Assembly: GCA_963745235.1 (NCBI GenBank)
Contig: CAVUXE010000029.1
Coordinates: 64,001-128,000 of the forward strand
Direction: 5' to 3'
DNA length: 64,000 nucleotides
From: an uncultured Spirochaetota bacterium
Lineage (GTDB): Bacteria; Spirochaetota; Spirochaetia; SZUA-6; Fen-1364
Positions 5,167-64,000 of the stretch are shown piece after piece. Numbering within the stretch: position 1 is the first letter of the stretch; each line of letters opens with the position of its first letter. Both the position numbers and the translations under genes were made by a program. Below the pieces are notes generated by a model, which searched no databases, was not told the DNA's origin, and worked only from the letters and a program-made list of their open reading frames with translations.

Positions 5167-6217
5167 TCAGGTCACGAAGTGGCAGGCTACCCTGTGCCCC
5201 GGCGAGACCTCCTTGAGGGGAGGCTTCTCGTGAGTGCAGATGTCTTTTTCCAGGGGGCATCTGCCCACAAAGGGGCACCCGGTCGGAGCGCGCGTGGGGT
5301 TGAACGGGTTTCCCGCTGCCGCGCCGCGGTCCGGCAATCTGCCGCCAATCCGCGGAATGGCGCTGTAGAGGAGTTGAGAATACGGGTGGAGGGGGGTGCG
5401 CGCCAGGTCCGCGGCGGGCGCCTCCTCCATCATGCTCCCACCGTAGAGAACGCCGATCCGATCCGCCATGTACGAAACAACAGTGAGGTCGTGGGCGATA
5501 AAGAGGATGCTCAGGTTGAACTGCCTTTTCAGATCGGCAAGGAGATTGAGGATCTGGCCCTGGATGGAGACGTCCAAGGCGCTGACGACCTCGTCGCAGA
5601 TCAGGGCTCTCGGGCCGCTGAACAAAGCGCGGGCAAGGGAGATGCGCTGGCGCTGCCCTCCCGAAAACTCGGACGGCCGCCTCTGGAGGTCCGCCGCCCG
5701 CAGCCCCACCGCCTGCATGAGCTCCACGGCCCTGGCCTTGAGAGCGGCCGCGGTGGACCCTTGCCCGTTGTATTTTGCCCCCGCGCAAAGGATGTTGAGG
5801 ACGCTCATCCGGGGATCCAGGGAGGAGGAGGGGTCCTGGAAGACGTACTTGACGTCGGCGCGCAGCCGCCGCAGGAGCTGCGGATTGTGTTGGTCAATCT
5901 CCCACAAGGCGGGCGCCGCCGGCGCCACGCTCATCCGGGCCGGGGGAGTAGCGTATGGTACCCGAGGTGTGCGGCGCCAGCTGAACGATGCAGCGCGCAA
6001 TTGTGGTCTTCCCTGACCCCGACTCTCCCACCAGGCCGTACGTCTCCCCGCGAAGGATAGCGAAGCTCACGCCGTTCACGGCCCATACCCACCGCCCGGC
6101 AGAGGCGAAGAGGCCTGCTTCCAGCTTGAAGACCTTCCTCAGGTCATCCACGCGGATGAGGGCGTCCACGGACTGCGCCTCTGCCTTGGTTCCTGTCCGG
6201 GCAAGGCTCTGGTTCAT
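5167..6217 (-). CDS. oppF: Oligopeptide/dipeptide ABC transporter ATP-binding subunit, OppF-like (frameshift near 5920)
   Basis: GESGSGKT in the N-terminal piece; [17 protein letters not shown] and Cys-rich tail in the C-terminal piece. Confidence 0.88.
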
Positions 6218-9474: not shown

Positions 9475-11294
9475 TGGGCCTTCAGGTACACATAGTTGAA
9501 ATCAGGCGCTCCCAGGGTGTCGACGCGGATGTTCGCCCACTTGTCGCGATACGCGGCAAAAGAAACCGCGTAAACCATGTACATGACGGGAACCTGGTCC
9601 AGGAGGATCCGCTGGTACTGGTCCCAGATCTTTTTCGCCTTCACCGGATCACGCTCCGAGTAGCCCTGCCAGTACAACTCATCGATCTTGGCCTCCCACG
9701 CGGTTGCCGGCTTCGGCTGGAGGGGGTTCCACAGGTGCAGGTTGCCCGAGGAGAGCCAGACATTGTCACCTTGGATGGGGAAGTAGTTCGAGCCGACGGA
9801 GATCATGATGGACTGCCAGTCGTAGGCTTTTGTCAGGCTGTCCACGATCTTCTGGAACTGGACCGGTTTCACGTTGAGCGTGATGCCCACCTTCTTCAGC
9901 TCATCCGCGTAGATGGTCGCGATGTCGATGCTCAGGTTGGTTTCGATGGGTACGGTGAGGTCATACGTGATGACGTTTCCCTCCGCATCCTGCATGAGCC
10001 CCTGCGCGTTCGGCTTGATCCCGATCTGCGCCAGGAGCTGTTTCCCGCGCTCAGGGTTGTACGTGAACTGCTGCCGTGATTGACAGGATCATAGTAGGGA
10101 TTCGGCTTGGCGAAGAAGGAAAGATCCGGCTCCGCCAGCCCGCGGTAGACCTCCTTGACCACCCTGTCCCGGTTGAAGAAGCAGCTCATGGCCTGGCGGA
10201 AGACGGTGTTGGAGAACCATTTCACGTACAACGGCTTCAGGTTCCTGGGGTTCTGGTTCCAGGAGATGAACGCAGCGCCGAGAGCTAGGGCCGTCGTAGT
10301 ACACCGAGTAGTCCCGCGGGCTCTTGTTCACCATCTCCTGGAGGTCCTCGGGCCGCAGGCTGTAGCCATCGAGCTCCCCGGCGAGGAACTTCAGCCTTTC
10401 CGTGTCCTGGTTGGGAACGATCTTCGTCTCATACCTTTCGATGTACGGGACCTTCTGACCGTAATCGTCGGTCTTGAAGTAGTTCGGGTTGCGGACCAGC
10501 GTGACCTGGACTCCCGGCTTGTTCGACTCGATGGAGTACGGTCCCATGGAGGGAATGGTCCGGGGATCCGTGTTGATGGTCCACAGGTTGAGCACTCCCT
10601 CCACGCCCTTCGCCTTCTTGACCGGCTCGAAGATGTAGCGAGGCCCGAAGTTCATGTTGCTGGAAAGCTCTGGCATGGCCACGACGCGGGGATAGTGCAT
10701 GACGAACCTCCTCTCGTCGATCTTCTCCATGTCGATGTGCTTCTTCTTGCCGTCCGGCATCTGCACGAACTGGCCCGCGTAGGCGGAATGCTGCATTGCG
10801 GGGTCCCCCACGATCTGGTTGTACCAGAACACGACGTCATCCGAGGTCACCTTGACCTTTGTTTTCGGGTCCGCGAGCGTCGTCCAGTACAAGTCGTCGC
10901 GAAGCGTGAACGTCACATCCATGGTGCCGGCAGCTTCGTTCACGGAGACCTCGTAGGAAGCGGCCAGGGGCTTCCACTGCTTCTTGTACGCGTCGTAGTC
11001 GAGAAGGGAGGTGGAGAGGTTGTCGACAATCCCCGCGCTCTCAGCGTCATAGACGGCAACCACGGGGTTGAAGGTCTTCAGGTCATTGTTGAGGTTGTTG
11101 AGCCACGTCCCTCCGCTTCTGCCCTTCTCGTAGGGAGCCGTGCTCCCCGGGCGGTAAACGGTCTTCTCCAGGAGGCTGTCCTCCTGCTGCTTTTTCTGGA
11201 AATTGAGCTGGTCTTCCGAGATCTGCTTGACCCCGGGGCCGCAGGCGGCAAGGAAGGCCACGGCCGCCACCAGAAGCAGCTGCAATCTTTTCAA
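9471..11294 (-). CDS. oppA: Family 5 solute-binding lipoprotein, OppA-like (two frameshifts)
   Basis: TTG start after GGAGGAG; LAAC lipobox; TFTLRDDLYW, VTSDDVVF, GPY, LVRNPNY and FRQAMS motifs across three ORF pieces. Confidence 0.88.
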
Positions 11295-11400
11295 TTCCGG
11301 CACTCCTCCATCTGGGCGACTGCGAGCACGGTGCAAGCTTACACAGTCCGGGGGAGGCGGGCAACCGGAGGAGCGGCAACCGGAGATCGGACAGGACCGA

Positions 11401-12009
11401 TCAGCTGAAGTAGTGCTTCACAATCGTGTCGACATACGCGGCCCGCCCATCCTGCCGGGCGAGGTCGAGACCCATGGTATGACGGAACAGCTGGGGCATG
11501 ATCCCCGGGAGGAGGACCGCTGACACCATCTGGACCACCTCGGCGGAGATCTCCCGCGCGCTCCGGGCGGGGAAGAGCCCGCTCATCTCCCGGGTGAGGG
11601 AAACGACGAACCGGTCCAGCGCCCTGATCAGAGGGGTCCGCGAGACGCCCTTGATGAAGGTGTCATAGAGGTGCGCCTTGACGATCCCGGGAAACTTGAG
11701 CGATCCCTCGTACAGCTCCAGGAGAACCGAACGAACCCGGGACCGAAGGTCGGAGGACCTTTCCCGCAGCAGCACCTCCCAATCCCCGAAGGCGTTCTGC
11801 AGGGTCATGGCCAGCGCCTCGGCAATCAGCGCGTCCTTGGACCTGAAGTAGTAGCTGATAGCGGCGCTGTTCACGCCGGCCTCGCGGGCTATGCCGCGTA
11901 TGGTCACCTCGTGCAGACCATCACGCTCGATGCAATTGATGGCAGCCTCGACGATTCTCTTCCGGGGCGGCAGGGGCGGCTGCTTCCTTGGCGTGCGCGC
12001 ATTTGTCAC
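11401..12009 (-). CDS. TetR/AcrR-family transcriptional regulator
   Basis: IVEAA...G...TIRGIAREAGVNSAAISYYFRSKDAL helix-turn-helix. Confidence 0.92.
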   Translation of the reverse strand: MTNARTPRKQPPLPPRKRIVEAAINCIERDGLHEVTIRGIAREAGVNSAAISYYFRSKDALIAEALAMTLQNAFGDWEVLLRERSSDLRSRVRSVLLELYEGSLKFPGIVKAHLYDTFIKGVSRTPLIRALDRFVVSLTREMSGLFPARSAREISAEVVQMVSAVLLPGIMPQLFRHTMGLDLARQDGRAAYVDTIVKHYFS

Positions 12010-16456: not shown

Positions 16457-17743
16457 ATGGGCGATAGCAAGACTTACAGGTTCGAAACGCTGGCGCTCCA
16501 CGGGGGCCAGGTGGTGGATCCGACCACAACCTCGCGCGGGGTGCCCGTCTACCGGACGAGCTCCTACGTTTTCCCGACAACCGAGAGGGCGGCCAACCTT
16601 TTCGCCCTGAAGGAGCTGGGCAACATCTACAGCAGGATCATGAACCCCACGCAGGACGTGCTGGAGCAGAGGGTCTCTCTCCTTGAAGACGGCGCAGCCT
16701 CCGTTGCCTTCGCCTCGGGAACGGCCGCCATCTTCAATACCCTCGTGACCATCATGTGCATGGGAGATGAGATCGTCTCCGCGAGCAACCTCTACGGCGG
16801 GACGTACACGATGTTCGATGCCATCCTGCCCACCCTTGGCATCACGGTGAAGTTCGTCAAGCATGACGACCCGAAGAACTTCGAGAAGGCGATAACGCCG
16901 AAGACCCGGGCCCTCTTCATCGAGACAATCGGCAATCCCGTGCTGGATGTCACCGACATCGCGGAGGTGGCGAAGGTCGCCCATGCCCACGGGCTTCCCC
17001 TCATCGTGGATGCAACTTTCACGACCCCCTATCTCCTGAAGACCATCGACTACGGCGCCGACATCGTCATCAACTCCCTCACCAAATGGATGGGCGGGCA
17101 CGGGACGGCAATCGGCGGAATCGTCACCGATGCCGGCCCGTTTCGACTGGAAGGACAAGAAGTTCAAGCTCTTCAACGATCCGGACCCCAACTATCACGG
17201 CCTGAAGTGGGCCCACGATCTTCCCGCGGCCGCTGGCCCCCATGGCCTTCGCGCTGCGGCTGCGCACGGTTCCGCTTGCGCAACCTCGGGGCGTGCACAT
17301 CTCCCGACAACGCGTGGATCTTCCTCCAGGGCATCGAGTCCCTGCCCGTCCGCATGGAGCGGCACTCCAGCAATGCCCTGGCGGTGGCGCAGTGGCTGAA
17401 GAAGCAGCCCAAGGTCGAATGGGTGCGCTACCCCGGACTCCCTGAGGACCCGACCTACCCCGTTGCCAGCAAGTACTTGAAGAAGGGCTTCGGCGGCATG
17501 GTCGTGTTCGGCATCAAGGGCGGCAAGGCGGCGGGAGAGAAGTTCATCAACAGCCTGAAGCTGTTCTCCCACCTTGCCAACGTCGGAGACGCGAAGAGCC
17601 TGGCCCTCCACCCGGCAAGCACCTCGCATTCCCAGCTCACCGAGGAGCAGCAGCGCGAAGGCGGGCTGACTCCCGAGCTGGTCCGCCTGTCCATCGGCCT
17701 GGAGCACGTGGATGACATCAAGGAAGACATCGAGCAGGCTTGA
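16457..17743 (+). CDS. metY: O-acetylhomoserine aminocarboxypropyltransferase (sulfhydrylase); compensating frameshifts at about 17140-17275
   Basis: [28 protein letters not shown] (PLP Lys), [17 protein letters not shown]. Confidence 0.92.
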
Positions 17744-17762
17744 AACTGAGCTGAGGAAAGAA

Positions 17763-18694
17763 ATGAATATCAAAGCGAATGTGCTGGAGCTCGTCGGCAA
17801 CACGCCCCTGGTGCGGCTGAACAGGGTGAACGAGGGCGCCAAGGCGGAGGTGGTCGCAAAGCTGGAGTCCCGCAACCCGCTTGCCAGCGTGAAGGACAGG
17901 ATCGCGCTTGCCATGATCGAGGACGCGGAGAAGCGCGGACTGCTGAAAAAGGGCAGCGTCATCGTGGAGCCCACCAGCGGCAACACGGGCATCGGGCTGG
18001 CCTACGTGGCCGCGGTCAAGGGATACCGCTGCATCCTCACCATGCCGGAGAGCATGAGCATCGAGCGCCGCAAGCTCCTGAAGGTCTTCGGCGCCGAGGT
18101 GGTCCTCACCCCCGCGCCGCGGGGCATGGGGGGCGCAATCGAGAAGGCCCGAGAGATCCTGGAGGCGACCCCGGACTCCTTCATGCCCCAGCAGTTCGAG
18201 AACCCCGCCAACCCCGAGGTCCACCGCAAGACCACCGCGGAGGAGATCTGGAAAGACACCGACGGCAAGGTGGACATCCTCGTGAGCGGGGTCGGGACGG
18301 GGGGAACCATCACCGGAGTGGCGGAGTTCATCAAGAAGAGGAAGCCGGGTTTCAAGGCCATCGCCGTGGAGCCGTCCAAGTCTCCCGTCCTTTCCGGCGG
18401 ACGCCCCGTCCCCGCACAGGATCCAGGGAATCGGCGCGGGGTTCATCCCGGGCGTGCTACAACAAGAACGTGGTCGACGAAGTGATCAAGGTGGAGGACG
18501 AGGACGCGGGCAAGACCGCGCGCCTGCTCGCGAAGGAGGAGGGGCTCCTGGTGGGGATCTCCGCCGGTGCGGCCGCGTGGGCCGCCCTTGAGGTGGCCAG
18601 GCGGCGCGAGAGCGCGGGGAAGCTGATCGTCGTGGTGTTCCCCGACACGGGCGAGCGCTACCTGAGCACCTGGCTCTTCGAGGACGGCGCCTGA
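17763..18694 (+). CDS. cysK: Cysteine synthase A (frameshifts near 18400-18470)
   Basis: [43 protein letters not shown]. Confidence 0.93.
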
Positions 18695-40304: not shown

Positions 40305-40442
40305 AACGAAAAGTATCGTGGAATGCCGGCGTGATTGCAAGTAGCGGCCCCGGCGGCCCCTGGCAGATCCTTGACTACGATCGGACTTCCGTCCTATTTT
40401 CAGCTGCGCGGTGAGATATCTCACCCACAGGAGAGGAAAGAG

Positions 40443-40988
40443 GTGAGATTCGTTCCCCGGAAACTGTTCCTGACCCGCGGGGTCGGGATCAACAAGGAAA
40501 AGCTGAACAGCTTCGAGATGGCGCTCCGGAACGCCGGCATCGCGCACCTCAACATCGTGCGCGTCTCCTCGATTTTTCCGCCCGGCTGCAAGATCGCAAG
40601 CCCTGAAGAGGGACTTGCCGCGCTGGAAGCCGGCGAGGTCACATTCGTCGTGCTCGCGGAGATGGCCACCAACGAGCCCGGGCGCCGCATCGCCTCCTCC
40701 ATCGGCATCGCCATTCCCGCGGACCAGAAGATGTACGGATACCTCTCCGAGCACCACGTCTACGGGCAGACGGAGAAGGAAGCGGGGGACTACGCGGAGG
40801 ACCTTGCCGCCTCCATGCTCGCCACCCTGCTCGGCGTGCCCTTCGACCTGGACAAGGACTACAACGAGCGGCGCGAGCAGTACCGCATGGGCGGCCACAT
40901 CGTCGACAGCACCAGCATCACGCAGACTGCGGAAGGCGCCTCGGGAGGGGTCTGGACCACGGTCGTCTCCGCCGCGGTTCTCCTGTAG
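40443..40988 (+). CDS. pdaD: Pyruvoyl-dependent arginine decarboxylase
   Basis: SFEMALRNAGIA..NIVRVSSIFPP (Ser-Ser self-cleavage site), YGYLSEHH, AEDLAA.ML. Confidence 0.9.
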   Translation: MRFVPRKLFLTRGVGINKEKLNSFEMALRNAGIAHLNIVRVSSIFPPGCKIASPEEGLAALEAGEVTFVVLAEMATNEPGRRIASSIGIAIPADQKMYGYLSEHHVYGQTEKEAGDYAEDLAASMLATLLGVPFDLDKDYNERREQYRMGGHIVDSTSITQTAEGASGGVWTTVVSAAVLL

Positions 40989-41001
40989 CAATCCGACGGA
41001 G

Positions 41002-42093
41002 ATGGCTCAGACGCCGCCACCGGGACGCGAGCTTGCTCCCCGGCCCCTTTCCGCGGGCATCGGGGTCGATACGCTTGTCGACGAGTTTCTTCCTCTCCTA
41101 CAACGCCGGGCGGCTGCGCGAGGCCTGCCACATCTTCGCGGACAAGATGCTGGAGCCCGACGTCACGGTGGGCCTCACCATCAGCGGCGCGCTCACCCCG
41201 ACGGGGCTGGGCTACGCCGCCTTCGTCCCCCTGGTCGAGGCCGGTTTCGTGGACTGGATCGTGTCCACGGGCGCGAACATCTACCATGACATGCACCGCT
41301 CCCTGGGCTTCTCCCTGTACGGCATCTCTCCCGGCGTGGACGACGTGGCGCTGCGCCGGGACGGCATCATCCGCATCTACGACATCGTTTTCGACGCGGA
41401 CGTGCTCTTCAAGACCGACGAGTTCATCGCCGAGGTGCTGAAGTCCGCCGAGTTCCAGAAGCGCATGTCCACCGCGGAGCTGCACTGGCGGCTGGGCCGC
41501 TACGTGCGGGAGCGGGAGAAGCTGCTGCGGCACCGCTTACCGCTCCCTGATCGGCGCCGCCTGGGAATGCGGGGTGCCCATCTACACCTCGAGCCCCGGC
41601 GACTCGAGCCTCGGCATGGGCCTTGCGTCCCTGCGCCTGCAGGGCTACGAGGTCGGCTTCGATCCCGAGCTGGACGTGAACGAGACCGCGGCCATCGTCT
41701 ACGATGCCAAGCGAATCCGGCGGAAAAAGCGGCGTGCTCATCCTCGGCGGCGGCAGCCCCAAGAACTTCGCGCTGCAGACCGAGCCGCAGATCCAGGAGA
41801 TCTACAGGCTGGCGGAAAAGGGGCACGACTACTTCATCCAGGTCACCGACGCGCGCGTGGACACCGGCGGCCTCTCCGGGGCCACCTCGCAGGAGGCGGT
41901 CACCTGGGGCAAGGTGGACCCCGACCAGCTCCCCGACACGGTGGTCTGCTACACGGACAGCACCATCGCCCTTCCCATCATGACGGCATACGCGCTCACA
42001 AAGAGAAAACCGCGCGCGCTCAAGCGCCTGTATGACAGGCGCGTCCAGATGCTCTCCCGGCTCGCATCGGACTTCAGAAATCAAGCTACGTGA
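41002..42093 (+). CDS. Deoxyhypusine synthase-like (SpeY-type homospermidine pathway) enzyme; frameshifted
   Basis: [49 protein letters not shown]. Confidence 0.87.
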
Positions 42094-42616
42094 TCGTGTC
42101 CAGATCCCTTCGGGCGTGGTCGAGAATCTCGAAGACCTTTGCCATCTGGTCCGGATTGTTGCCGCAGCGTGAGGCGGCGCGGGCGGCTGACTTCATGACG
42201 TGCATGGCCGGCCCCGCAACCCCGGCGATGTGCGGCCCCATGAACGCGTTCCAGTCCCCCCAGCCCCATCCTCCGGCGCGCTCCCACATCTCGCTCACGC
42301 CGGCCGCGTTCTTCTCCAGTTCCTGCCCGCCGGCTTCAGTGATCTGGTAGACGCGTTTGCCCTCCTGCTGAACGGATGTAACGAGTCCCTCATCTTCCAG
42401 TTGTTGGAGAGTCGGGTATACGGCACCTGCGCTGGCCCTGTATGTTCCCCCCGACTTTGCTTCCAGGGTTTTCATCAGCTCGTAGCCATGTTTCGGACCT
42501 TCCTTCAGGAGCGACAAGATGGCCAGTCGGAGCTCCCCGGGCGCAAAGAACCGCCCCCAGTGCCCCATGCCGCCCATCCATCCTCCCCAAGGTCCCCAAT
42601 GTCTATGCATTCTCAT
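42086..42616 (-). CDS. PadR-family regulator (YqjI-like)
   Basis: [25 protein letters not shown]....[14 protein letters not shown]; AGGAGG RBS. Confidence 0.9.
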
Positions 42617-42640
42617 ACCTCCTATCAAAAGTATGACTGA

Positions 42641-42669
42641 AGTATATCTAAAGATATATCACAAGTCAA
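42641..42669 (-). promoter_or_regulatory. padR promoter TTGACT-N17-TATACT with an overlapping TATATCT-N2-AGATATA palindrome
   Basis: Near-consensus sigma70 elements; perfect 7-2-7 inverted repeat at 42643-42658. Confidence 0.75.
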
Positions 42670-42698
42670 TCCAACGATAGTGCTAGCGATAGGGTGAG

Positions 42699-43106
42699 GT
42701 GGACGAGCGAGGCCCTCGCTGCGATCCCGTTTATCCTCGCCGCGTTGCCCCCCGGCGGGTGCGCTTGGTTGCGGAGACGCTGTACGTCACGGGAGCTCGT
42801 GTCTCTGGATCCTCACCGTCAGGCGCGACCAGATCAAGATCAAGACCAACGGCTCCGGGAGCTCAGGCTTCTACAGCAAGGGCGGAAAGGAACGCACGGC
42901 CAGATTCCCTACGGAGCTGTACAAGAGAATCCTCCAGGCGTTCCCGCGGGGCACCTTGGCGGCGGCCACGAAGAGGATCAAGGCGGTCTTTATGATGCTT
43001 GGCCACAGCGACGAAGCGACCACGCTGCGGCACTATGCGCACGACGCCTTCAGTGACGGGGAGCTTTTCGGGGAGGTGAAATGCCACGGCAGGAATGCGG
43101 AGACCT
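42699..43106 (+). pseudogene. Decayed tyrosine recombinase (frameshifted, internal deletion)
   Basis: TLYVTGARVS (catalytic Arg box), KGGKER and MLGHSDEATTLRHYAH present; the HxLR segment is missing. Confidence 0.75.
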
Positions 43107-43201
43107 CGAAGCGACCACGCTGCGGCGCTATGCGCACGACGCCTTCAGTGACGGGGAGCTTTTCGGGGACGTGAAATGCCACGGCAGGAATGCGGAGACC
43201 T
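43012..43201. repeat. 95-bp tandem duplication (2 copies, 2 mismatches)
   Basis: Units at 43012-43106 and 43107-43201, both starting CGAAGCGACCACGCTGCGG. Confidence 0.9.
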
Positions 43202-43469
43202 CGCCGCGGCCCGCCACGCGCGGAGCCTGCGTCTTTCAAGGCACGCAGTCACATGGAGAGCTCCCGTCATGACTTATGCAGCTGCATCGATAACTGGCGA
43301 TGGGAAGATTTCGAGACAAACTGCATAATATGAATGTTCTGCTCCACTTTTTGGGTCAAGACAGTTGGTGGCCTTATGCCCTCAGCCGTATGCGTGAAAG
43401 TATCGGCAATTCGTGCCTCAAAGACTGGGCGACGCCAGTCACCAATGGACTACTTGCTTGAAGGTGGAC

Positions 43470-43520
43470 TTGACGTGTTTAGCGAAAGGTTGTAGCTTGT
43501 AACGTACGGTAAAGCGTACG
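43470..43520 (+). promoter_or_regulatory. yefM-yoeB promoter (TTGACG-N17-TAGCTT) with two CGTACG operator cores 12 bp apart
   Basis: CGTACG at 43503 and 43515, the same spacing as the TGTACA cores of yefM-yoeB-type operators. Confidence 0.7.
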
Positions 43521-43535
43521 GAGGAAGGCCTTTTC

Positions 43536-43778
43536 ATGAGCAGCATCAATATCACGAACGCTCGAAAGAATCTTTACAGACTGGTAGAGAAGCTTTCTGA
43601 AACTCATGAGCCAATTCACATTACTGGGAAGAGCAAGTCCGCAGTTCTGGTTGGAGAAGACGACTGGCGTTCAATTGAGGAAACTCTCTACTTGCTATCC
43701 ATCCCGGGGCTGCGGGAATCGATTCTTAAGGGAATGAAAGAACCCATTTCAAAAATGTCAACCAAGGTTGATTGGTGA
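43536..43778 (+). CDS. yefM: Phd/YefM-family antitoxin
   Basis: INITNARKNLYRLV..HEPIHITGK..AVLVGEDDWRSIEETLYL. Confidence 0.92.
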   Translation: MSSINITNARKNLYRLVEKLSETHEPIHITGKSKSAVLVGEDDWRSIEETLYLLSIPGLRESILKGMKEPISKMSTKVDW

Positions 43779-44041
43779 GCTACAAGCTTTACTTCACTCA
43801 GCAAGCACAAAGGGATGCTAAGAAGCTAAGCAGAGCAGGATTGCGGCCGCAGGCAGAGAAGCTGTTGAAACTTCTGCGTCGAAATCCTTTCGCACGCTAC
43901 CCTCCATACGAAAAGTTGCTCGGTGATCTTTCGGGCGTGTTTTCACGCCGGATCAACATACATCACAGACTTGTGTACCAAGTATTGGACGACAAGAAAG
44001 CCGTCAAGACAATCCGAATGTGGACACATTATGGAGAGTAG
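43772..44041 (+). CDS. yoeB: Txe/YoeB-family toxin
   Basis: PYEKLLGDLSG.FSRRINIHHRLVYQV...MWTHY. Confidence 0.93.
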   Translation: MVSYKLYFTQQAQRDAKKLSRAGLRPQAEKLLKLLRRNPFARYPPYEKLLGDLSGVFSRRINIHHRLVYQVLDDKKAVKTIRMWTHYGE

Positions 44042-44077
44042 ACGTCAGGTATAGGAGTTTGGTTGAAAACACGTGGA

Positions 44078-44193
44078 GCATAACAAGTCGTTGAAGCCGA
44101 CCCCTACACGGCCGGCCCGCAGTAAGGCAAAGGCTTAGTAAAAGCGGTCACGGCTGGGCTGATGCGGCGGGGCGGCTTAACTCTATGTTATGC
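44078..44193 (+). other. Integron attC recombination site 1
   Basis: R'' GCATAAC ... R' GTTATGC (complementary). L'' GTT[G]AAGCCG[A]CCCC pairs with GGGGCGGCTTAAC, leaving two extrahelical bases; 116 bp. Confidence 0.88.
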
Positions 44194-44201
44194 CGTCCTT
44201 G

Positions 44202-45499
44202 GGTCCTGTCCGAGCACATCGTTGACACTTTTGCGGGCGACGTTCTCTCCGAGAGGAGAGGCGGATGCCCTGGAGAGGAACGGTCGACGATGGACGAGAA
44301 GGCAAGTTTCATCCTCGAGTGGGAATCGGGCGAGCACACGTTCACGGCACTGTGCAAGTCCTTCGGTGTCTCGCGCGCCTTGGGCTACCGCCTGGTGCTG
44401 CGCTATCTGCTACGGGGTGTGGCGGGACTGCGGGAGCAGTCACGAGCTCCGCGCAGGGTATGGAACCGCACGGCGCCCGAGGTGGAGCGGACCATCGTGG
44501 GGCTGCGGCGCAAGTGGAAGCGCATCGGTGCGCTGAAGATCTACCAGTTGCTCAGTGAGAGGTACCACGGTCGGCGCGCGGTGCCTTCGGTGTCCACGAT
44601 CGCCTTGGTGCTCAAACGCTACGGTCTGGTCAAGAAGCGCCGCCGCGTTCGTCGCATCCGAGAGACGCACCCGATCTTCGAGGCGAAGGCTCCCAACGAG
44701 ATTTGGAGTGTGGACTTTAAGGGGGAGTTCCGCATGGGCAACATGCGCTACTGCTACCCGCTGACAATCATGGACGCGTACAGCCGCTACGTGCTGGCGG
44801 TGGTCGGGATGCACCGACCGACCTATGAAGGCACAAAGGCCGTATTTGAGGCACTTTTCAAGAAGTACGGGCTTCCCAAGCAGATCCACAGTGACAACGG
44901 GGAGCCGTTTGCCAGCGCGGTGAGCCTCTCGCGGCTGACGCGGCTGGCTGTATGGTTCATGGACCTGGGCATCCAGCCGGTCTACTCCGACCCGGCTCAC
45001 CCTGAGCAGAATGGCAGTCACGAGCGCATGCACGAGGAGCTGAAGGCTGAGGCCACCAAGCCGCCCGCCTACAGCCTGGGGCAACAGCAGCACAAGTTTG
45101 ACGCCTTTCGCTACTTCTACAACCAGCAGCGCCCCCATCAGGCGCTGGGGCAGCGCAGACCAAAGGAGTTCTACCATCGGTCTTCAAGGAGCTTGCCCCG
45201 CACGATGCGACCGTGGAAGTATCCAGCAAGGCATCAGCACCAAGTACGTGTGTCGCAACGGAGCTATTCGCTGGGGAGCCAGCAAGTGGGTCGTGGTCAG
45301 CACGACTCTGATCGAGAAGTACGTGGGGTTGGAGCAGATCGTGAAGGGCAAGTGGCGCGTGTACTACCGCGACACGCTGTTAGGCTACCTTGACGAGAGA
45401 GAGTTGCGCATCCAGGATCAACTCGGTCGGCTGCTGAGAGCAGCCAAGTAGCTGTTAGGATGTGCTGAGAAAAGTGTCAACGATGTGTTAATCAGGACA
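44202..45499 (+). mobile_element. IS481-family insertion sequence
   Basis: Terminal inverted repeats share CACATCGTTGACACTTTT; right end ...GGACA; left boundary approximate; no clear target duplication. Confidence 0.85.
44265..45451 (+). CDS. IS481-family DDE transposase (frameshifts near 44275 and 45230)
   Basis: MPW..., WSVDFKG, CYPLTIMDAYSRY, SDNGEPF, HPEQNGSHERMH, YNQQRPHQAL. Confidence 0.9.
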
Positions 45500-45576
45500 C
45501 TTATTCGGAGGCAGCCAACCGTGTACCTTTTGGGGTCGTCTTGATAGGGAGGTCTCCGGTCAGTACTAGGCTACCC

Positions 45577-45604
45577 TTGACATTGGATACACCACGTGTA
45601 TACC
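45577..45604 (+). promoter_or_regulatory. Promoter/operator of the AbrB-Doc module
   Basis: TTGACA at 45577 with a TATACC/TACCTT -10; ATACAC-N3-GTGTAT palindrome at 45587-45601. ATG follows within about 10 nt, so possibly leaderless. Confidence 0.6.
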
Positions 45605-45612
45605 TTCGGCGC

Positions 45613-45840
45613 ATGACTAAGAAGCTCATCCAGCACGGAAACAGCGCCGCCCTGGTCATCGATAAGGCTCTTATGGACCTGCTCAAAGTCCGTATGGACA
45701 CTCCCCTTGAAGTCACTACCGATGGCAAGAACATCATTATCTCCCCTCAGACCAAGGAGAATGCGGAAGCTACCTTGTTGCAGGCTCTTGAAAGAATTAA
45801 CCAGAAGCACGGATTCGTTTTATCCAAACTGGGAAAGTAA
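45613..45840 (+). CDS. AbrB/MazE-family antitoxin
   Basis: MTKKLIQHGNSAALVIDK...LEVTTDGKNIIISP. Confidence 0.9.
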   Translation: MTKKLIQHGNSAALVIDKALMDLLKVRMDTPLEVTTDGKNIIISPQTKENAEATLLQALERINQKHGFVLSKLGK

Positions 45841-45843
45841 GAC

Positions 45844-46245
45844 TTGGAACCTCGTTTTCTCACCATGAGCGAGGTTCTTATTATTCTGCAGGATCAGATC
45901 CGTAGATACGGTGGAACTTACGGACTTCGGGATCCAGCCCTGCTGAGCTCAGCCTTGGCAATGCCAAGTAGCTCATTTGAAGGGAAATACCTCCACAGGG
46001 ATTTGTTTGAGCAGGCCGCGGCTTATGCTTTTCACATTTGTCAAAATCATCCCTTCGTTGACGGAAACAAGAGAACTGCCCTTGCCTCAGCCCTTGTGTT
46101 CCTATCTCTCAACGAGATTGAACTTGATGACCCAAAAGAAGAGCTCTATGACCTGATGATGAAGGTTGCAAAGAGCAAAGCTTCTAAATCAGAGATCGCA
46201 ACCAAGTTTCGAGCTTTCAGAAGCAAGAAGAAGAGGAGTAAGTAG
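45844..46245 (+). CDS. doc: Death-on-curing (Doc/Fic) toxin
   Basis: YGGTYGLRD..LLSSAL, HPFVDGNKRT. Confidence 0.92.
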   Translation: MEPRFLTMSEVLIILQDQIRRYGGTYGLRDPALLSSALAMPSSSFEGKYLHRDLFEQAAAYAFHICQNHPFVDGNKRTALASALVFLSLNEIELDDPKEELYDLMMKVAKSKASKSEIATKFRAFRSKKKRSK

Positions 46246-46289
46246 CGATTCAAGGCTTGAACCGTCGCCGTTGATCGAAAGGGCGGACG

Positions 46290-46407
46290 GCATAGCAAGT
46301 CGTTGAAGTTGACGCCTTGAGTTACGTGAGGAAAGCGAGGCCGACGGTCCGTAAAAGCCGTTGTTGTTGGGTTGCGGTCGGCGGCGCAGCTCAACCCTAT
46401 GTTATGC
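46290..46407 (+). other. Integron attC recombination site 2
   Basis: R'' GCATAGC (one change from GCATAAC), then AAGTCGTTGAAGTTGACGCC ... GGCGCAGCTCAACCCTAT GTTATGC; 118 bp; ends nearly identical to attC1. Confidence 0.85.
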
Positions 46408-46479
46408 TGTTTCTGCGTTTGTGAAGGCGCTGTTGATAGATGGGTGACAATTGTGTACCTTTCCATTGAGGGGTGCAAG

Positions 46480-46767
46480 ATGAAGTTCGTTACCGTTCGC
46501 GATTTCCGAACGACTCCAGCTCAAATCTGGAAGGATCTCCTCGGAGAGCAGGAGATTGTCATAACCAACAATGGAAAACCTATAGCTCTGCTCACTCCTT
46601 TGAACGACACTGACATGGAAGATACTGTAACGGCGGTTCGTAGAGCGCGAGCAATTGCGGCGCTGAAGAAGATTCGCGGGTCCTCCCTCAAGAAGGGACT
46701 GTCCGAAATAACCATGGAGGAGATTGGCAAGGAGATCCAGGACTACAGAAAAAGTAAAAGGAAATGA
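46480..46767 (+). CDS. Phd/YefM-family antitoxin
   Basis: MKFVTVRDFR...EIVITNNGKPIALL. Confidence 0.88.
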   Translation: MKFVTVRDFRTTPAQIWKDLLGEQEIVITNNGKPIALLTPLNDTDMEDTVTAVRRARAIAALKKIRGSSLKKGLSEITMEEIGKEIQDYRKSKRK

Positions 46768-47186
46768 AAGTTGTCCTTGACACAAACGTGATCGTCTCTG
46801 GATTGATCAACGTTGAGGGTGCGCCCGCTCAGATCGTCAATCTACTTCTGAATGGCCGAATTGCGCTGCTCTACGATAGTCGGATTCTAAGGGAATACAT
46901 AGAGGTTCTAAACAGGAAAAAGTCTGGATTTAAGAGAAGCGCACTAGATCCGATTTTTGACTACCTAAGGAATGAAGGTGAATACGTTACGGCAGAGCCG
47001 ACGAGCAAAAGGTTTGTGGACAACAATGATACCATGTTTTATGAGGTCGCAAAGACAGCAGGTGCAAGGTGCCTTGTTACTGGAAACAAGGGTCATTTTC
47101 CGAACGAAAAAATCGTAAAAAGTCCGAAAGAGTTCATTGATTTGTATCTATCTGAAAATGAAGGTAAGAGAACAGAAACAACATAA
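46764..47186 (+). CDS. PIN-domain (VapC-like) toxin
   Basis: VVLDTNVIVSG, EY.EVL, D..FYEVA, LVTGN..HF; ATGA-coupled to the antitoxin. Confidence 0.9.
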   Translation: MKVVLDTNVIVSGLINVEGAPAQIVNLLLNGRIALLYDSRILREYIEVLNRKKSGFKRSALDPIFDYLRNEGEYVTAEPTSKRFVDNNDTMFYEVAKTAGARCLVTGNKGHFPNEKIVKSPKEFIDLYLSENEGKRTETT

Positions 47187-47247
47187 TAAGTTGATGTGGT
47201 GCCCGTCAGGCCGAGTAGGCTTTGATGGACGAGGCGGTGGGTGGCTG

Positions 47248-47424
47248 TATACTGCGAGACGGCTCGGTACCGAGCGGGAAGGAGCGCAGTAGATGGCCGT
47301 CACGGAAGGGCTTAGGTATCAGACTTTTCTTAAGAGTATTCTTCGCAAGTATGTCACTGGACACCTTGTTGAAAGACGCCGGAAGATTGGTGCACCAGAC
47401 GCGAGGCATAAGAGTGAAAACTGA
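47248..47424 (+). pseudogene. Decayed CopG/BrnA-like antitoxin fragment
   Basis: Frame not in the ORF track: ...EGAQ*MAVTEGLRYQTFLKSILRKYVTGHLVE..., resembling the EGxPYQTLIxSILHKYVxG motif; internal TAG. Confidence 0.6.
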
Positions 47425-47430
47425 GGGATA

Positions 47431-47447
47431 GAATAACGAGTCGTTGA
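47431..47447 (+). other. Truncated attC (R''/L'' half only)
   Basis: GAATAACGAGTCGTTGA versus GCATAACAAGTCGTTGA in attC1; no right half found. Confidence 0.5.
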
Positions 47448-47458
47448 TCGCCCGCCTC

Positions 47459-49001
47459 TCAGGACGAATAGCCCAGAAAAGAATCGGTACGGACCTGCCG
47501 GCGCGGGACTCCCGCCGACCACAAGAGCTTCACAATGGCGCTCACCATTCCCGGCGGACCCGAGACGAAGTATCGCCGCTCGGTGAACGCGGGGATTTCC
47601 TTCCGCACCATCTCCGCGTTTATGGGACCGCGCTGCCCGCACCAGTCCTGTCGGACCCGGGACAGGTCAGTGAGCGTGTAGACGGCCTTCAGCCCCAGTT
47701 GCCGCTTCGCCTCGTCGAAAACATCCCGGAATACGATCTCCCCCTCGACGGCGCTCGAGTACAGCAGCACGATATCGCGCCGCTCCCCGGTGTCGACGAG
47801 GTACTTGATCATGCTGCGAAACGGTGTGATCCCGATACCACCCGCAACGAAGGCAAGGGGGATGCGCGGATCCTTCGGGAGCACGAAGTCCCCGCCCAAC
47901 TCGCCGGGCAATGATGGGGTCCCCTCTTTCCATCCGCGCCATTTCCGACTTGTACCGGCTCGGCTTGTGGTTGAACCGAGCGGCAATCATCAGATCCCCC
48001 TCCGTCGGCGAGGAGGCAATGCTGAAGTACCGGCGTGTTCCCCTGCTGTCGCCTTTTGAAAGAGGGAGGGTCCACTCCATGTATTGTCCCAGCCGGTGGG
48101 TAAAGCCAGGCGGGCGGGGAAACGTGAAGGTCATGATTCCATTCCCTATCTCCCTGCGCTCCTTGAGCCTCAGGCGCAGCTTGAAGCTCGGGCTCACCGT
48201 GAAGGAAAAGAGATTGCCCGCCAGGAGCGCTTCTTCGGGAGTCAAGTTCTGGCCAAACAGGGAAAGCTGTGGCTGGTAGAGGAATGCGACGATGGCCGCA
48301 TAGAGAAGCTGAAGCCGAAAGCGCTTCGGCGACGTCATTGGCTCGGTGAACATGATGGTGGCGAAGAAGATGACAGAGGTCCGGCTCAGAACGAACAGAA
48401 GGCTCTGGACGGCGTCACCGACCGCCAGGCCCTGGATCAAGGCGAGGGCAAAGTCGAATGCCAGGAACATTGCAAGGAATGCGCCCACAAGCCGCAGCCT
48501 GCCTGTCTTGCGGGCCAGGAGGAGACCCCCGACGGCTGCAAGGGGGAGAAGCGCGATGTTTCCCACCCACCAGCTTGCCCCCGCGCCGAAGACGATGCCG
48601 GAGAAAAGCGCCCCAACGGCCGCGGGGTTGAAGAGGTGCTGCCGCCGCAGGGCAAGGATGTATTTCGAGGCAACGGCGACGCCGCCCGCAAGGGCCAGGA
48701 TTCCCGCATGCCGAGGGTCGGACAAGGCCGGCACGGGACCCATGATGAGGGCCATGATGAGCGCTGTGATGAGGGATGACTCGGGATTCGACCTGATTCG
48801 CGCTATCCGCGCAAGGAGAGCGTTTCCAAGAAGACAGGATGCAACCAGGATCCCGGTCGTGGACAGGATGGCAACGGGGCCGCCTGGCACGACACCAAAC
48901 GCGCTCAGGATGGTTGCGACGTACAGGAGCGATGCCAGGTAATACACGGTCAACCTGTACATCGTGAATCTGTTCAGAAAGCCGTCCAGGATCCTGATCA
49001 T
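47459..49001 (-). CDS. RnfD/NqrB-like membrane domain fused to an FNR-type FAD/NAD reductase (frameshift near 47910)
   Basis: SSLITAL, ASKY..RQHLFNPAA, MFTEPMTSP; then GQYMEW, RYFSIASSP, AGGIGITPF, SGPPGMV. Confidence 0.85.
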
Positions 49002-57360: not shown

Positions 57361-58728
57361 TCAATTGAGACCCGAATCGAGCACCGGTTGCTCGGCCTCC
57401 AGCCAGTTCCTCCGGGCAAGCTCCTGGAACCAGAATGCGCTCTTGCGGAAGGTGCGGGCCTGGGTTGCAAAGTCCGTGTGCAGCAGCCCGAAGCGCATCA
57501 GGTGACCGAACGCCCACTCGAAGTTGTCCATCAGGGTCCAGTGGAAATAGCCGCGGCAGTCCACACCCTCCGCAACCGCCTTCCCCACCAGCGCGATGTG
57601 GTCCCGCAGGTAAGCGATGCGTTCCGGGTCGTCCAGGGGATCCCGCCCGTCCGCCCCGGGAAGAGGAAAGCCGTTCTCCGTGATGTAGCACGGAGGGTTG
57701 CCGTACTCGTCACGCAGCCGAAGGAGCGAGAGATAGATGCCCTTGGGATAGATCTCCCACATGGCGCTGCGCGGCGCGTGGGGATCCACGTATTCCCGGG
57801 CGTGCGTGTAGGGCTGCAGCAGGGACCAGCGGTAGACCGAGCGCTGATAGTAGTTTATCCCGGCAAAATCCAGGGAACCCTTCATTCCGGGAAGGTCCCT
57901 TTCGAAGCCGCGCGGCATGTGGCGGCCAACACGGGCGAGCACACTCCCTGGATAGGCACCGAGGAAAAAAGGGTCCATGAAGAAGCGGTTGAGCGCCTGG
58001 TCCATGAACAGCGCTGCCGCCCTGTCCCTTTCCCGGCCCGGATCCTTCGGGGATATCCAGATCTGCGCCAGGGCCATGCCCATCCGTCCTCCCGGAACCA
58101 GCGCTCTGACGGCCTCGCGAAGGCGCGCGTGGGACAGGAGCAGGTGATGGGCGCAGTGAAACATGCCGCTCAGGTCGTTCTTGCGGCCAGGAGGGAAGTA
58201 TCCCAGGATGTAGCCCAGAGAGGCGAAGATCGACGGTTCGTTGACGGAGATCCAGGTCTTTACCCGGTCTCCCAGGTTCCTGAACAGGCAGGCGCCGTAC
58301 TCCTCCAGGTGGTCAACGGCGGCGCGTTTCACGAAGCCGCCGGTCTTTTCCAGCCAGACGGGTTCATCCCAGTGGAAGAGGGTAAGCCACGGCTCGATGT
58401 TCGAAGCAAGCAGGCAGTCGACCAGGCGCGAGTAGAAGTCCAGGCCTTTCTGGTTGACGCGATGGGGCTCGGGGAATATCCGGGGCCACGACACGGAGAA
58501 CCGGTAGGCGTTGAGCCCCAGCTCCTTCATGAGGCCGACGTCCTGCGCGGACCTGCGATAATGGTCGCACGCTGCGTCGCCGTTCGTTCCATCCCTGATT
58601 CTTCCCGGCCGGTGGCTGAACTCGTGCCAGATCGAAGGGCTGGCGCCGTCCGCGAGCGGGGACCCCTCTATCTGGTAGGAAGCTGTTGCTGCGCCCCAGA
58701 GGAAGCCGCGCGGGAACTGGATAGGCAT
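57361..58728 (-). CDS. GH1 beta-glucosidase
   Basis: WGAATASYQIEG, YRFSVSW, NEP, ITENG, DNFEW. Confidence 0.93.
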   Translation of the reverse strand: MPIQFPRGFLWGAATASYQIEGSPLADGASPSIWHEFSHRPGRIRDGTNGDAACDHYRRSAQDVGLMKELGLNAYRFSVSWPRIFPEPHRVNQKGLDFYSRLVDCLLASNIEPWLTLFHWDEPVWLEKTGGFVKRAAVDHLEEYGACLFRNLGDRVKTWISVNEPSIFASLGYILGYFPPGRKNDLSGMFHCAHHLLLSHARLREAVRALVPGGRMGMALAQIWISPKDPGRERDRAAALFMDQALNRFFMDPFFLGAYPGSVLARVGRHMPRGFERDLPGMKGSLDFAGINYYQRSVYRWSLLQPYTHAREYVDPHAPRSAMWEIYPKGIYLSLLRLRDEYGNPPCYITENGFPLPGADGRDPLDDPERIAYLRDHIALVGKAVAEGVDCRGYFHWTLMDNFEWAFGHLMRFGLLHTDFATQARTFRKSAFWFQELARRNWLEAEQPVLDSGLN

Positions 58729-58783
58729 GATTCCCTCCGAAGGCCGGATGGTAGCGTGCCGAGGGGCAGCGCGTCGAGATGCG

Positions 58784-58830
58784 GCTCGGCGCCCCCCACG
58801 CGGCTCCGCCGCGCTACGCATCCTTGGCTC
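58784..58830. repeat. About 46-bp GC-rich intergenic repeat, copy 1
   Basis: GCTCGGCGCCCCCCACGCGGCTCCGCCGCGCTACGCATCCTTGGCT; near-identical direct copy at 61917-61961. Confidence 0.8.
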
Positions 58831-58845
58831 GCCACCGGGATCGGA

Positions 58846-59248
58846 GTCTTCAGACGAGGTTAGGCGAACTGAGCCTCAAGATCCCCAAGCTACGCGAGGT
58901 GAGCTACTTCCCTTCCTTCCTGGAACCAAGGCGACCGCCTTCGTTCAGGATAGCCACACCGAGGCAGTTCGGCAGTGGCGGGAGTCGGCTATGAACCTCC
59001 GGACGCGGTTCCCGAAGGTCCAAGACCTGATGGAGAGGGCCGAAGTCGATGTGCTGGCGTTCATCGCGCTCCCGAAGGAGCACTGGCCACAGATCGCGAG
59101 CACCAATCCCATCGAGCGGCTCAACCGAGAGATCAAGCGTCGATCGCAGGTCGTCGGGATCTTCCCGAACGACGCCCCGGTACTGTGCCTCGTGCGCGCT
59201 GATGGCCGAGCAAAACCGATGAGTGGCAGGTCTTACGAAGGTACATGA
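58846..59248 (+). pseudogene. IS256-family transposase remnant (internal deletion)
   Basis: TRLGELSLKIPKLR.SYFPSFLEPR joined to EVDVLAF..PKEHWPQIASTNPIERLNREIKRRSQVVGIFPN. Confidence 0.85.
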
Positions 59249-61989: not shown

Positions 61990-62174
61990 CTTTCCAGTTG
62001 AATGTCTCCCGCAATCACAGCAATTGTAACTGGATAGTGGTTTTCCCGGGCGGCAAAAAAGCGGAAGAGCCGCGCGCCCGGTGAAGCTCCGCAAGCGACG
62101 CAGGAAGCGCCGCGGACGGGAGCGCCGGAAGCGACCAGGAGGTCGCTCGCGGGAGAGCAGTAAAGGAGAATAGA

Positions 62175-64000
62175 ATGGCGAGAGTCATCGGAATCGACCT
62201 GGGGACTTCCAACTCGGCCGCCTCCGTGATGGAAGGCGGAAGGCCCACAATCATCCCGTCGGCGGAAGGAGCGGGGGTATCCTCCGGCAAAGCGTTTCCT
62301 TCATTCGTGGCATTCACCAAGGAGGGGGAGCGGCTGGTCGGGGAGCCCGCGCGCAGGCAGGCGGCCATCAACCCGGACGGCACGATCTACGCGGCAAAGC
62401 GGAAAATGGGGACGGACTACAAGTTCAAGGCGTACGGGAAAGAGTACAGCCCCCAGCAGATCTCTGCGTTCATTCTGCAGAAGATCAAGCAGGATGCGGA
62501 GGCATACCTCGGGGACACCGTGGAAGAGGTGGTCATCACCTGTCCCGCGTACTTCGACGACAATCAGCGCACGGCGACCAAGGATGCCGGTGAGATCGCC
62601 GGCCTGAAGGTCCTGCGCATCATCAACGAGCCCACCGCGGCGTGTCTTGCGTACGGCCTGGAGAAGGCGGGCAAGGAGCTGAAGATCCTTGTGTTCGACT
62701 TCGGGGGCGGGACCCTGGACGTCACCATCATGGAGATGTGGAAGGAAGGCGGCTTCAAAGTCGTCGCCACCAGCGGGGACACCCAGCTGGGAGGCACGGA
62801 CATGGACAACACTTTCGTCGACTACGTGGTCAAAGAGTTCATGCGTCAGACCGGGCATCGACCTGAAGAAAGACACCATGGCCATGCAGAGGGTGCGGGA
62901 AGCAGCGGAGAAAGCGAAAGTGGAGCTTTCCAGCACCATGTCCACGGACATCAACCTGCCCTTCATCACCGCGGACGCGAGCGGCCCGAAGCACCTCACC
63001 ATGACGGTGAACAGGGCCAAGCTGGAGGAGCTGATCGGCCCGATCGTCCAACGCTGCCGCGTTCCCCTGGAAACCGCGCTTCGCGACGCGCGCGGGGCGT
63101 TCTCCAAGGATGGAGTGCAGTTCAACGAGACCGGCGCGGACATCGACAAGATCATCATGGTGGGCGGTCCCACGCGCATGCCCATCGTGCAGAAGTTCGT
63201 TGAGGACTTCTTCGGCAAGAAGATCGAACGTGGTGTGGACCCCATGGAGTGCGTTGCCATGGGCGCCGCCATCCAGGCGGCCATCATCAAGGGAGAGGTC
63301 AAGGACGTCCTGCTCCTGGACGTCACTCCGCTGTCCCTCGGCATCGAGACGCTGGGCGGGGTGAGCACGAAGCTCATCGAGCGCAACACCACCATCCCCA
63401 CGCGAAAGAGCGAGATCTTCTCCACCGCGGCGGACAACCAGACGGAGGTCACTATCCGCGTGCTCCAGGGCGAGCGGCCCATGGCCAACGACAACGTCGA
63501 GCTGGGCAGGTTCAACCTGGTGGGGATCCCGCCGGCGCCCCGCGGGGTGCCGCAGGTCGAGGTGTCCTTCGATATCGACGCCAACGGCATCGTGAGCGTG
63601 GCGGCCAAGGACCTGGGGACCGGCAAACAGCAGTCCATCAAGATCACGGCGCCCAAGAAGCTTTCGAAGGAAGAGATCGAGAAGATGGTGCGCCAGGCGG
63701 AGCAGTTCGCCTCGGAGGATGCCAAGCGCAAGGAAGAGGTGGAGGCCATCAACCAGGCGGACACCCTTGCGTACTCGGTGGAGAAGTCCCTCAAGGACTA
63801 CGGGGACAAGGTGAGCCAGGCCGAGCGGGCGGACATCGAAGCGAAGCTCAACGACCTGAAGTCCGCCATCAAGGAAAAGAACGTGGATCGGATCAAGAAG
63901 GGCATGGAGGAGCTCACCAAGGCGTCGCACAAGCTTGCGGAGGAAGTGTACAAGCAGGCCGCCGGGCAAGCAGGGGGCAGGGCCGCAGCAGGGCCCCGGC
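62175..64000 (+). CDS. dnaK: Hsp70 chaperone DnaK (frameshift near 62860; runs off the window edge)
   Basis: [50 protein letters not shown]. Confidence 0.96.

Follow-up and report, generated by a model that had tools for sequence, protein, structure and literature searches.

attC clusters with no integron-integrase (CALINs) are defined as two or more attC sites that are separated by under 4 kb and have no integrase gene (intI) nearby (PMC4889954). They can arise through loss of intI (PMC4889954, PMC8618304), and CALINs beside a pseudogenised integrase have already been described (PMC13108822). Here we examine a 64,000-nucleotide (nt) stretch of DNA from an uncultured Spirochaetota bacterium (assembly GCA_963745235.1, contig CAVUXE010000029.1, positions 64,001 to 128,000), referred to throughout as the window. 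A tract of low guanine-cytosine (GC) content at approximately 43.3-47.45 kb of the window is a genuine CALIN made solely of toxin-antitoxin cassettes. It holds three gene pairs, all co-oriented on the plus strand and each a type II toxin-antitoxin module, together with two full attC sites and a truncated one (Table 1).

The two full sites lie on the same strand, 2212 bp apart from start to start, with no intI nearby. In this, in the small size of the array and in the co-orientation of cassette genes with attC sites, the locus is like published CALINs (PMC4889954). It is unlike them in that the whole array is toxin-antitoxin, one attC is truncated, a probable insertion sequence (IS) sits inside a cassette, and the host is an uncultured high-GC member of the Spirochaetia. 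Toxin-antitoxin cassettes in integrons have themselves been described. Those of sedentary chromosomal integrons such as the Vibrio superintegron are also two-gene type II modules with promoter regions of their own and toxins of the Doc, RelE/YoeB and PIN types, whereas in Vibrio they are scattered among tens to hundreds of cassettes beside a working intI and here they form the whole array with no integrase (PMC13108822). Cassettes carrying phd-doc, among others, are cited in the reference list of PMC8618304.

Spirochaetota integrons are likewise already known (PMC3607928, PMC9668308, PMC8618304). The original prediction for this DNA, made from the letters and their open reading frames, had called integrons little studied in this lineage. 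Our locus shares with the integrons of Treponema and other Spirochaetota the phylum and, with the Treponema layout, cassettes that point away from a co-oriented recombinase gene. It differs in that the recombinase is dead and not of the IntI kind, and in that the hosts are environmental metagenome-assembled genomes (MAGs) and not Treponema (PMC3607928, PMC9668308). Insertions at attG sites and single attC sites lacking integron-integrase (SALINs) resemble the locus as cassettes that lie in a chromosome without a platform (10.1101/2022.09.11.507474). Unlike these, it has three cassettes in place of one, a left junction with a paired R''-like box, and a right end that is a deletion scar.

Results

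attC1 and attC2 have their 5' 19 nt and 3' 15 nt in common and differ in their centres. The R boxes of attC1 read GCATAAC...GTTATGC, those of attC2 GCATAGC...GTTATGC. Imperfect inverted R''/R' boxes that bear the AAC...GTT triplets are present, and the eight R-box pairs are conserved in either 7 or all 8 sites of the family. These eight full sites, 103-118 nt long, are attC1, attC2 and six sites from two arrays in other Spirochaetota MAGs (L001 and L002, described below). Across the eight, the stem formed by the R and L boxes has 97.3% of its cells paired. Compensatory changes are seen in 5 of 23 pairs, all of them in the L box, a number matched by 3 of 500 shuffles, and the covariation score (0.186, compared to 0.072 in shuffles) was reached by none of the 500. 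Columns 16 and 23 stay unpaired throughout the eight, and their register matches that of the aadA1 attC of plasmid R100. The alignment agrees with the original prediction, which had described sites with common ends, different centres and two extrahelical bases.

Two covariance models, R1 and R2, were used as surrogates for the attC model of IntegronFinder, both run with filters off. The training set of R2 consisted of the six Spirochaetota MAG sites and the aadA1 attC of R100, with zero window sequence. Over both strands of the 64 kb, R2 found attC1 and attC2 as its only strong matches; the next match was the opposite strand of attC1 (E 0.034), and the rest had E values of at least 0.97. Rejection of both sites by an attC covariance model had been named as the outcome that would speak against an integron origin of the repeats, and the surrogate R2 accepts both (Table 1). 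R1, built from the family of the window sites, was run over 50 kb of R100. A single one of its 23 listed matches fell below E 0.1, and this was the aadA1 attC of the class 1 integron In2 (E 7.9e-6), found in the correct orientation and aligned end to end. The sites in the window and the aadA1 attC are built alike: an R box of 7 bp, a spacer of 5 nt, and an L box whose two unpaired bases fall in the same register. Their L-box cores are nearly identical (AAGCCGAC / GCGGCTTAAC). They differ in the centre, which is 65-67 nt here and 7 nt in aadA1, and in the R boxes themselves, GCATAAC/GTTATGC here and GTCTAAC/GTTAGAT in aadA1.

With no integrase nearby, one might suppose that the repeats are palindromes of the repetitive extragenic palindromic (REP) or miniature inverted-repeat transposable element (MITE) kind that merely flank toxin-antitoxin operons and are not integron sites. 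We regard this reading as close to refuted. The only significant match of the family model in 50 kb is the attC of a class 1 integron, whose R box, spacer, L box and unpaired bases keep the register of the family. The signal is also strand-specific, as attC1 scores 93.3 bits under R2 and its opposite strand 18.1, and the L002 array shows one site per cassette between unrelated genes. By their sequence and modelled structure, the repeats are integron attC sites.

Each of the three gene pairs has the layout of a type II module, in which a small antitoxin gene lies immediately 5' of, and abuts or overlaps, a toxin gene of a known family. In general, the antitoxin of such a module both neutralises the toxin and keeps its own promoter repressed; once the pair is lost, the stable toxin remains active. 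The pairs had been predicted as yefM-yoeB, abrB-doc and phd-PIN, and Pfam and NCBIfam profiles agree on the families, for the AbrB partner only weakly. All three toxins exceed curated cut-offs, and the YefM and Phd-like antitoxins exceed the PF02604 cut-off. The matches of the AbrB-fold antitoxin are both below cut-off, and TIGR02609 covers profile positions 2-72 of 74. The family match of the Phd-like antitoxin is confined to its N-terminal domain. The probable start of yoeB is GTG 43775, overlapping the yefM stop codon (GTGA, read by eye), and the ATG of the PIN toxin gene overlaps the stop codon of the phd-like gene (ATGA). A motif spotted by eye in Doc, HPFVDGNKR, is presumably the Doc catalytic motif. 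The PIN toxin is 32% identical to the PIN protein of an L002 cassette. All six genes are full length; many other genes in the window are split. Judged from their families, the three cassettes are predicted to be autonomous type II modules that would be expressed, toxic and addictive.

The suggestion that the locus is an anti-phage island found no support. PADLOC, run on eight proteins, gave only partial Doc matches to the candidate systems PDC-S23, PDC-M59B and PDC-S05.

No integron integrase was detected in the window. None of the 131 stop-to-stop frames of at least 180 amino acids (aa) in the 64 kb matched PF00589 at E<=1e-5, and tblastn of the R100 IntI1 over the window gave nothing below E 0.2. 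A complete integron, with an intI that encodes the IntI-specific insert and adjoins attI, was not found at the locus. Along with the R2 matches and the gene profiles, these searches uphold the central claim of the original prediction, an array of toxin-antitoxin cassettes only with no intact intI in the window.

A dead tyrosine-recombinase gene, overlooked by the original prediction, lies to the left of the array. The remnant corresponds to approximately residues 130-275 of a protein of about 285 aa and is spread over three frames. Its N-terminal half is gone, and an internal deletion removes the HxLRH region; since both segments are missing, the gene can be called dead independently of the frameshifts. 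A phmmer search against 1.84 billion representatives found 12 relatives of the remnant. Another genome carries P0001, a copy of this remnant at 74% identity that lacks the tandem duplication seen in the window. The intact relatives P0006 (285 aa) and P0012 (280 aa) score best with Xer models, below every curated cut-off, and match the integron-integrase profile TIGR02249 in two stretches only, at 67-86 bits compared to a cut-off of 265. When aligned, their family is without the insert of about 35 residues present in IntI1. The family is common in Spirochaetia MAGs. The GC content of the remnant is host-like, at 0.626. A tblastn search of plasmids with P0006 was uninformative, returning only distant tyrosine recombinases about 30% identical, such as those of Brachyspira plasmids. 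We considered the remnant as an intI pseudogene and rejected this assignment, as the family is Xer-like and without the IntI insert.

The dead gene could have been the recombinase of the array itself, in an integron-like platform without the IntI-specific insert and with a Treponema-like layout. The remnant ends 50 nt before the paired boxes at the left edge of the array, in the same orientation as the cassettes, and belongs to a family that Spirochaetia MAGs commonly carry. In Treponema, intI is transcribed toward attI and the cassettes (PMC3607928), while the 'typical' Spirochaetota IntIs are in reverse orientation (PMC9668308). Against this stand the better fit of P0006 and P0012 to Xer models than to TIGR02249, the missing insert, and the host-like GC content of the remnant. 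The related arrays speak against it as well: there is no copy of the recombinase beside L001 and none was found beside L002, where the tblastn match is only 28% identical, lies about 5 kb beyond the array end, and falls in unrelated recombinase genes. We consider this reading very improbable. If it were true, integron-type arrays in some environmental Spirochaetia would be operated by a tyrosine recombinase without the IntI-specific insert.

The paired boxes at the left edge have a 7-6-7 layout, as in the attI1 simple site of R100, and score weakly with the two covariance models (E 0.25 and 6.1). They resemble the left end of the L001 mini-array, whose flanking host genes are unrelated. The pair is likely the left junction of cassette 1, with the crossover between G43336 and T43337, and could be either an attI-type simple site or a collapsed attC.

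The right edge was located with a 17-mer that derives only from attC1 and attC2. With up to 2 mismatches it had 3 matches in place of the 0.00 expected from 100 shuffles, and the match at 47431-47447, with 2 mismatches, is the half attC that had been predicted at 47431. Similarity to attC ends after GTTGA at 47447; the convergent oxidoreductase gene has its stop codon 11 nt away from this point. As this last attC is cut in its middle, the right edge derives from a deletion and not from site-specific recombination.

Two further proposals for this end of the array did not hold. A decayed antitoxin gene had been placed after the PIN gene; none of the eight stop-to-stop frames in 47093-47529 matches Pfam at E<=10, and the two plus-strand frames are without an NCBIfam or PADLOC match. 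The PIN stop codon had been placed within an R''-like ACATAAT (47179); by our own count 12 of 16 bases match, and neither model reports the site. An attC starting at this stop codon was considered and rejected, as both models were blank and the fold of 47179-47300 is without an R-box stem. The tail after the PIN gene also contains a nested hairpin (TACTGCG...CGCAGTA around GCTCGGTACCGAGC, approximately 47251-47290) without an Rfam match. An Rfam search over 42600-47600 at E<=1 gave nothing but a chance microRNA match.

Table 1. Positions in the window of the cassette array, its parts and its immediate neighbours.
Feature	Position	Strand	Evidence or remark
PadR-family regulator gene	42086-42628	-	left neighbour of the tract
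Dead tyrosine-recombinase gene, Xer-like	42652-43272	+	frames; PF00589 at E 0.015 only; phmmer; tblastn with P0006, P0002 and P0001
Tandem duplication, 95-bp unit, two copies 98% identical	43012-43201		inside the recombinase remnant; P0001 has one copy
Paired boxes GCATAAT-ATGAAT-GTTCTGC	43323-43342	+	R''-like and R'-like box 6 bp apart, 50 nt past the recombinase remnant
Cassette 1	43337-44187	+	yefM-yoeB
Promoter-like TTGACG-17-TAGCTT with two CGTACG palindromes 12 bp apart	43470-43520	+	upstream of yefM; by eye, repeat search
yefM/phd-family antitoxin gene, 80 aa	43536-43778	+	PF02604, 71.8 bits, E 3.9e-20
yoeB/Txe toxin gene	43772-44041	+	TIGR02116, 88.3 bits (cut-off 51.8), profile positions 1-80 of 80
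attC1, 116 nt	44078-44193	+	canonical fold on both strands; R2 93.3 bits, E 1e-20
Cassette 2	44188-46401	+	AbrB-fold antitoxin and doc, plus probable IS481-family element
IS481-family element	~44207-45499	+	family assignment probable; between attC1 and abrB promoter region; inverted repeats, NF033577, rve and rve_3
Promoter-like TTGACA-16-TATACC with inverted repeat ATACAC/GTGTAT	45577-45605	+	upstream of abrB-like gene; by eye, repeat search
AbrB/MazE-fold antitoxin gene, 75 aa, Doc partner	45613-45840	+	TIGR02609 'doc_partner', E 5e-6; PF04014, E 0.0076
doc toxin gene (Fic/Doc family)	45865-46245	+	TIGR01550, 72.8 bits (cut-off 38.65); PF02661, E 9.3e-17
attC2, 118 nt	46290-46407	+	one G-T pair in R box; R2 71.5 bits, E 2.4e-15
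Cassette 3	46402 to at least 47447	+	phd-like antitoxin and PIN toxin
Promoter-like TTGATA-17-TACCTT	46433-46461	+	upstream of phd-like gene; by eye
phd-like antitoxin gene, 95 aa	46480-46767	+	PF02604, 31.0 bits (cut-off 29.8), profile positions 1-46 of 74
PIN-domain toxin gene (PIN_3)	46764-47186	+	PF13470, 73.1 bits; TIGR00305, 46.2 bits (cut-off 29.15)
Tail, 244 nt	47187-47430		no recognisable gene; hairpin ~47251-47290
Truncated attC, R'' and start of L'' only (GAATAACGAGTCGTTGA)	47431-47447	+	17-mer search, repeat family
Membrane oxidoreductase gene	47459-49001	-	right neighbour, convergent; split over two frames

The attC family of the window occurs in other Spirochaetota. One exact-pattern scan was run over 185,579 species genomes, a set that does not contain the window's own genome (its two pattern-fitting sites were not returned), and gave 4 loci; these lie on 2 contigs, each belonging to a Spirochaetota MAG. 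In L002 (CAWJSK010000012.1, 8274-12480, in the last 4.7 kb of the contig), five attC sites lie about 0.8-1 kb apart. Its cassettes are unrelated and encode a YcxB-like protein, an RHH-PIN pair, an inverted Gp49/HTH pair (HigBA-like), a flavodoxin, and one unknown protein. One end of this array is cut by a large transposase gene, the other enters an IS at the contig end, and intI was not found within the 13 kb examined. L001 (JBEKVA010000070.1, 1283-2832) is a mini-array in a high-GC Spirochaetia MAG, flanked by genes for an amidase and a 5'-3' exonuclease. It has two cassettes, DUF2846 followed by a FitA-like/PIN pair, with one full attC and one truncated; the last attC, after the toxin-antitoxin cassette, is reduced to its L'-R' half.

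The GC content of the L001 cassettes is 0.474, compared to 0.61-0.64 around them, and that of the L002 array is 0.479. By blastn, the window has nothing in common with L001 and L002 apart from the attC sites and 43 nt at the point where antitoxin and PIN genes meet, and tblastx of the window against the two gave compositional noise only. The common attC family, together with L boxes nearly identical to that of a class 1 resistance cassette, points to a common pool of cassettes of about 48% GC among Spirochaetota.

Each antitoxin gene is preceded by a promoter-like pair of boxes with 16-17 bp spacing, and the -10 box is weak in all three. The spacing of the two palindromes upstream of yefM is reminiscent of that in the yefM-yoeB operator of E. 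coli. The sole palindrome from the repeat search upstream of the phd-like gene is ACAATTGT. Chromosomal integrons are enriched in toxin-antitoxin cassettes, and such cassettes have promoters of their own (PMC13108822). A 15-nt direct repeat, CAAYYGTGTACCTTT, occurs with 87% identity at 45516-45530 and 46448-46462, upstream of abrB-doc and phd-PIN; this may be chance or a shared regulatory box.

Cassette 2 also contains a probable IS481-family element that, like the dead recombinase gene, the original prediction had missed. Its inverted repeats are perfect over 18 bp (44215-44232 / 45470-45487). The transposase gene extends over approximately 44290-45451, with a frame change near 45100-45390, at its 3' end, and NF033577 is matched over profile positions 2-283 of 284 at 208.7 bits, just below the cut-off of 224. 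The element has a GC content of 0.609. No target-site duplication was found by eye.

The composition of the cassettes is foreign to their surroundings. Their GC contents are 0.494, 0.499 and 0.470, compared to 0.651 in both flanks, in line with the AT-richer tract of the original prediction. The valyl-tRNA synthetase of the window is 77-80% identical to proteins of Spirochaetia MAGs, and all six organism-bearing names among the 120 matches listed are spirochaetes. Relatives of the synthetase at 86-90% identity are present on contigs as long as 473 kb.

Six ordinary genes of the window are each split over two overlapping frames (5170-6562, 9474-11417, 17670-18691, 40607-42032, 47459-49001 and 62085-63999); they include genes for an ABC ATPase, a solute-binding protein, a pyridoxal-phosphate enzyme, a deoxyhypusine-synthase-like protein, an oxidoreductase, and dnaK. 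Frame splits across the window probably reflect indel errors of long-read assembly and not true decay. Minus-strand frames antisense to dnaK (62304-63999) match PF10712, 'NAD-specific glutamate dehydrogenase', presumably a spurious antisense match and no gene. A fragment of a Mutator-family transposase (58679-59245, PF00872, C-terminal part only) lies some 11 kb away from the array. A gene for a pyruvoyl-dependent arginine decarboxylase adjoins the deoxyhypusine-synthase-like gene at 40335-42032, just upstream of the PadR gene, in what looks like a polyamine-related pair.

Discussion

We favour, with moderate confidence, a reading of this CALIN as an orphan array in an uncultured Spirochaetia chromosome, the addictive residue of a longer array that has been trimmed. 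The cassettes would have been drawn from the pool of about 48% GC common to other Spirochaetota. With a promoter-like region of its own, each would have no need for the integron's Pc promoter. Deletions would then have trimmed the longer array, and the survivors would be those cassettes whose loss kills or arrests the cell. Only such cassettes would have survived because a stable toxin outlasts its labile antitoxin. The trimmed array is favoured by the deletion scar at the right edge and by L001, whose last cassette is likewise a toxin-antitoxin pair followed by an attC that has been truncated. Cassette 2 alone is still bordered by two complete attC sites, and so it alone could in principle be excised by an IntI acting in trans.

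What we infer about the origin of the array is a choice between a collapsed integron and insertion in trans. In the latter case, the main alternative to our reading, the cassettes would have been inserted stepwise, at an attG-type or secondary site, by an integrase whose gene was at another place in the genome or on a passing element. No platform would ever have existed here, and toxin-antitoxin cassettes would dominate because they cannot be lost afterwards. No IntI-type remnant exists at the locus, and the strong contrast in composition suggests fairly recent import. IntI-mediated insertion outside att sites is efficient, and 1362 of 2961 CALINs hold only 2 cassettes, for which insertion has been proposed as the origin (10.1101/2022.09.11.507474). 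However, the right end retains a complete attC after a clean insertion. Here the site is cut after 17 nt, so a later deletion would be needed anyway. The non-cassette side of the left junction also resembles that of L001, which lies in an unrelated host context, and this fits array-borne sequence better than it fits a pair of independent target sites in the hosts. On balance, insertion in trans seems to us somewhat unlikely.

Several points count against the trimmed integron array that we favour. There is no intI pseudogene at the locus, and the adjoining dead recombinase belongs to an Xer-like family of about 280 aa. Most CALINs do not lie beside intI remnants, and many small ones may stem from insertion in trans (PMC4889954; 10.1101/2022.09.11.507474). 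The tail of the last cassette holds a hairpin and no recognisable gene. The original prediction had given at least two cassettes a promoter and an operator of their own; promoter-like pairs and palindromes are indeed visible by eye, but a sigma-70 consensus scan flagged none of the three pairs, and its 3 sites compare to 2.2 expected from shuffles. Folding of the bottom strands, proposed as a check, was canonical for attC1 (-24.2 kcal/mol, z-score -2.9). For attC2 the canonical form (-13.1 kcal/mol) is weaker than an alternative minimum (-15.2 kcal/mol). Finally, the probable assembly indels make any call of a 'dead' gene unsafe if it rests on frameshifts alone.

The kind of element found here is already well described, and the current understanding of integrons is unchanged. 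In the titles and abstract openings searched there was no array of toxin-antitoxin cassettes alone, and we do not claim that such an array is unreported. Toxin-antitoxin cassettes are thought to guard arrays from deletion. A remainder made only of toxin-antitoxin cassettes, with an attC cut by deletion, is a small natural illustration of this idea, and the L001 mini-array, which ends in the same way, is a parallel to it. Arrays in several uncultured Spirochaetota from different hosts have one attC family in common, and their cassettes are near 48% GC regardless of host composition.

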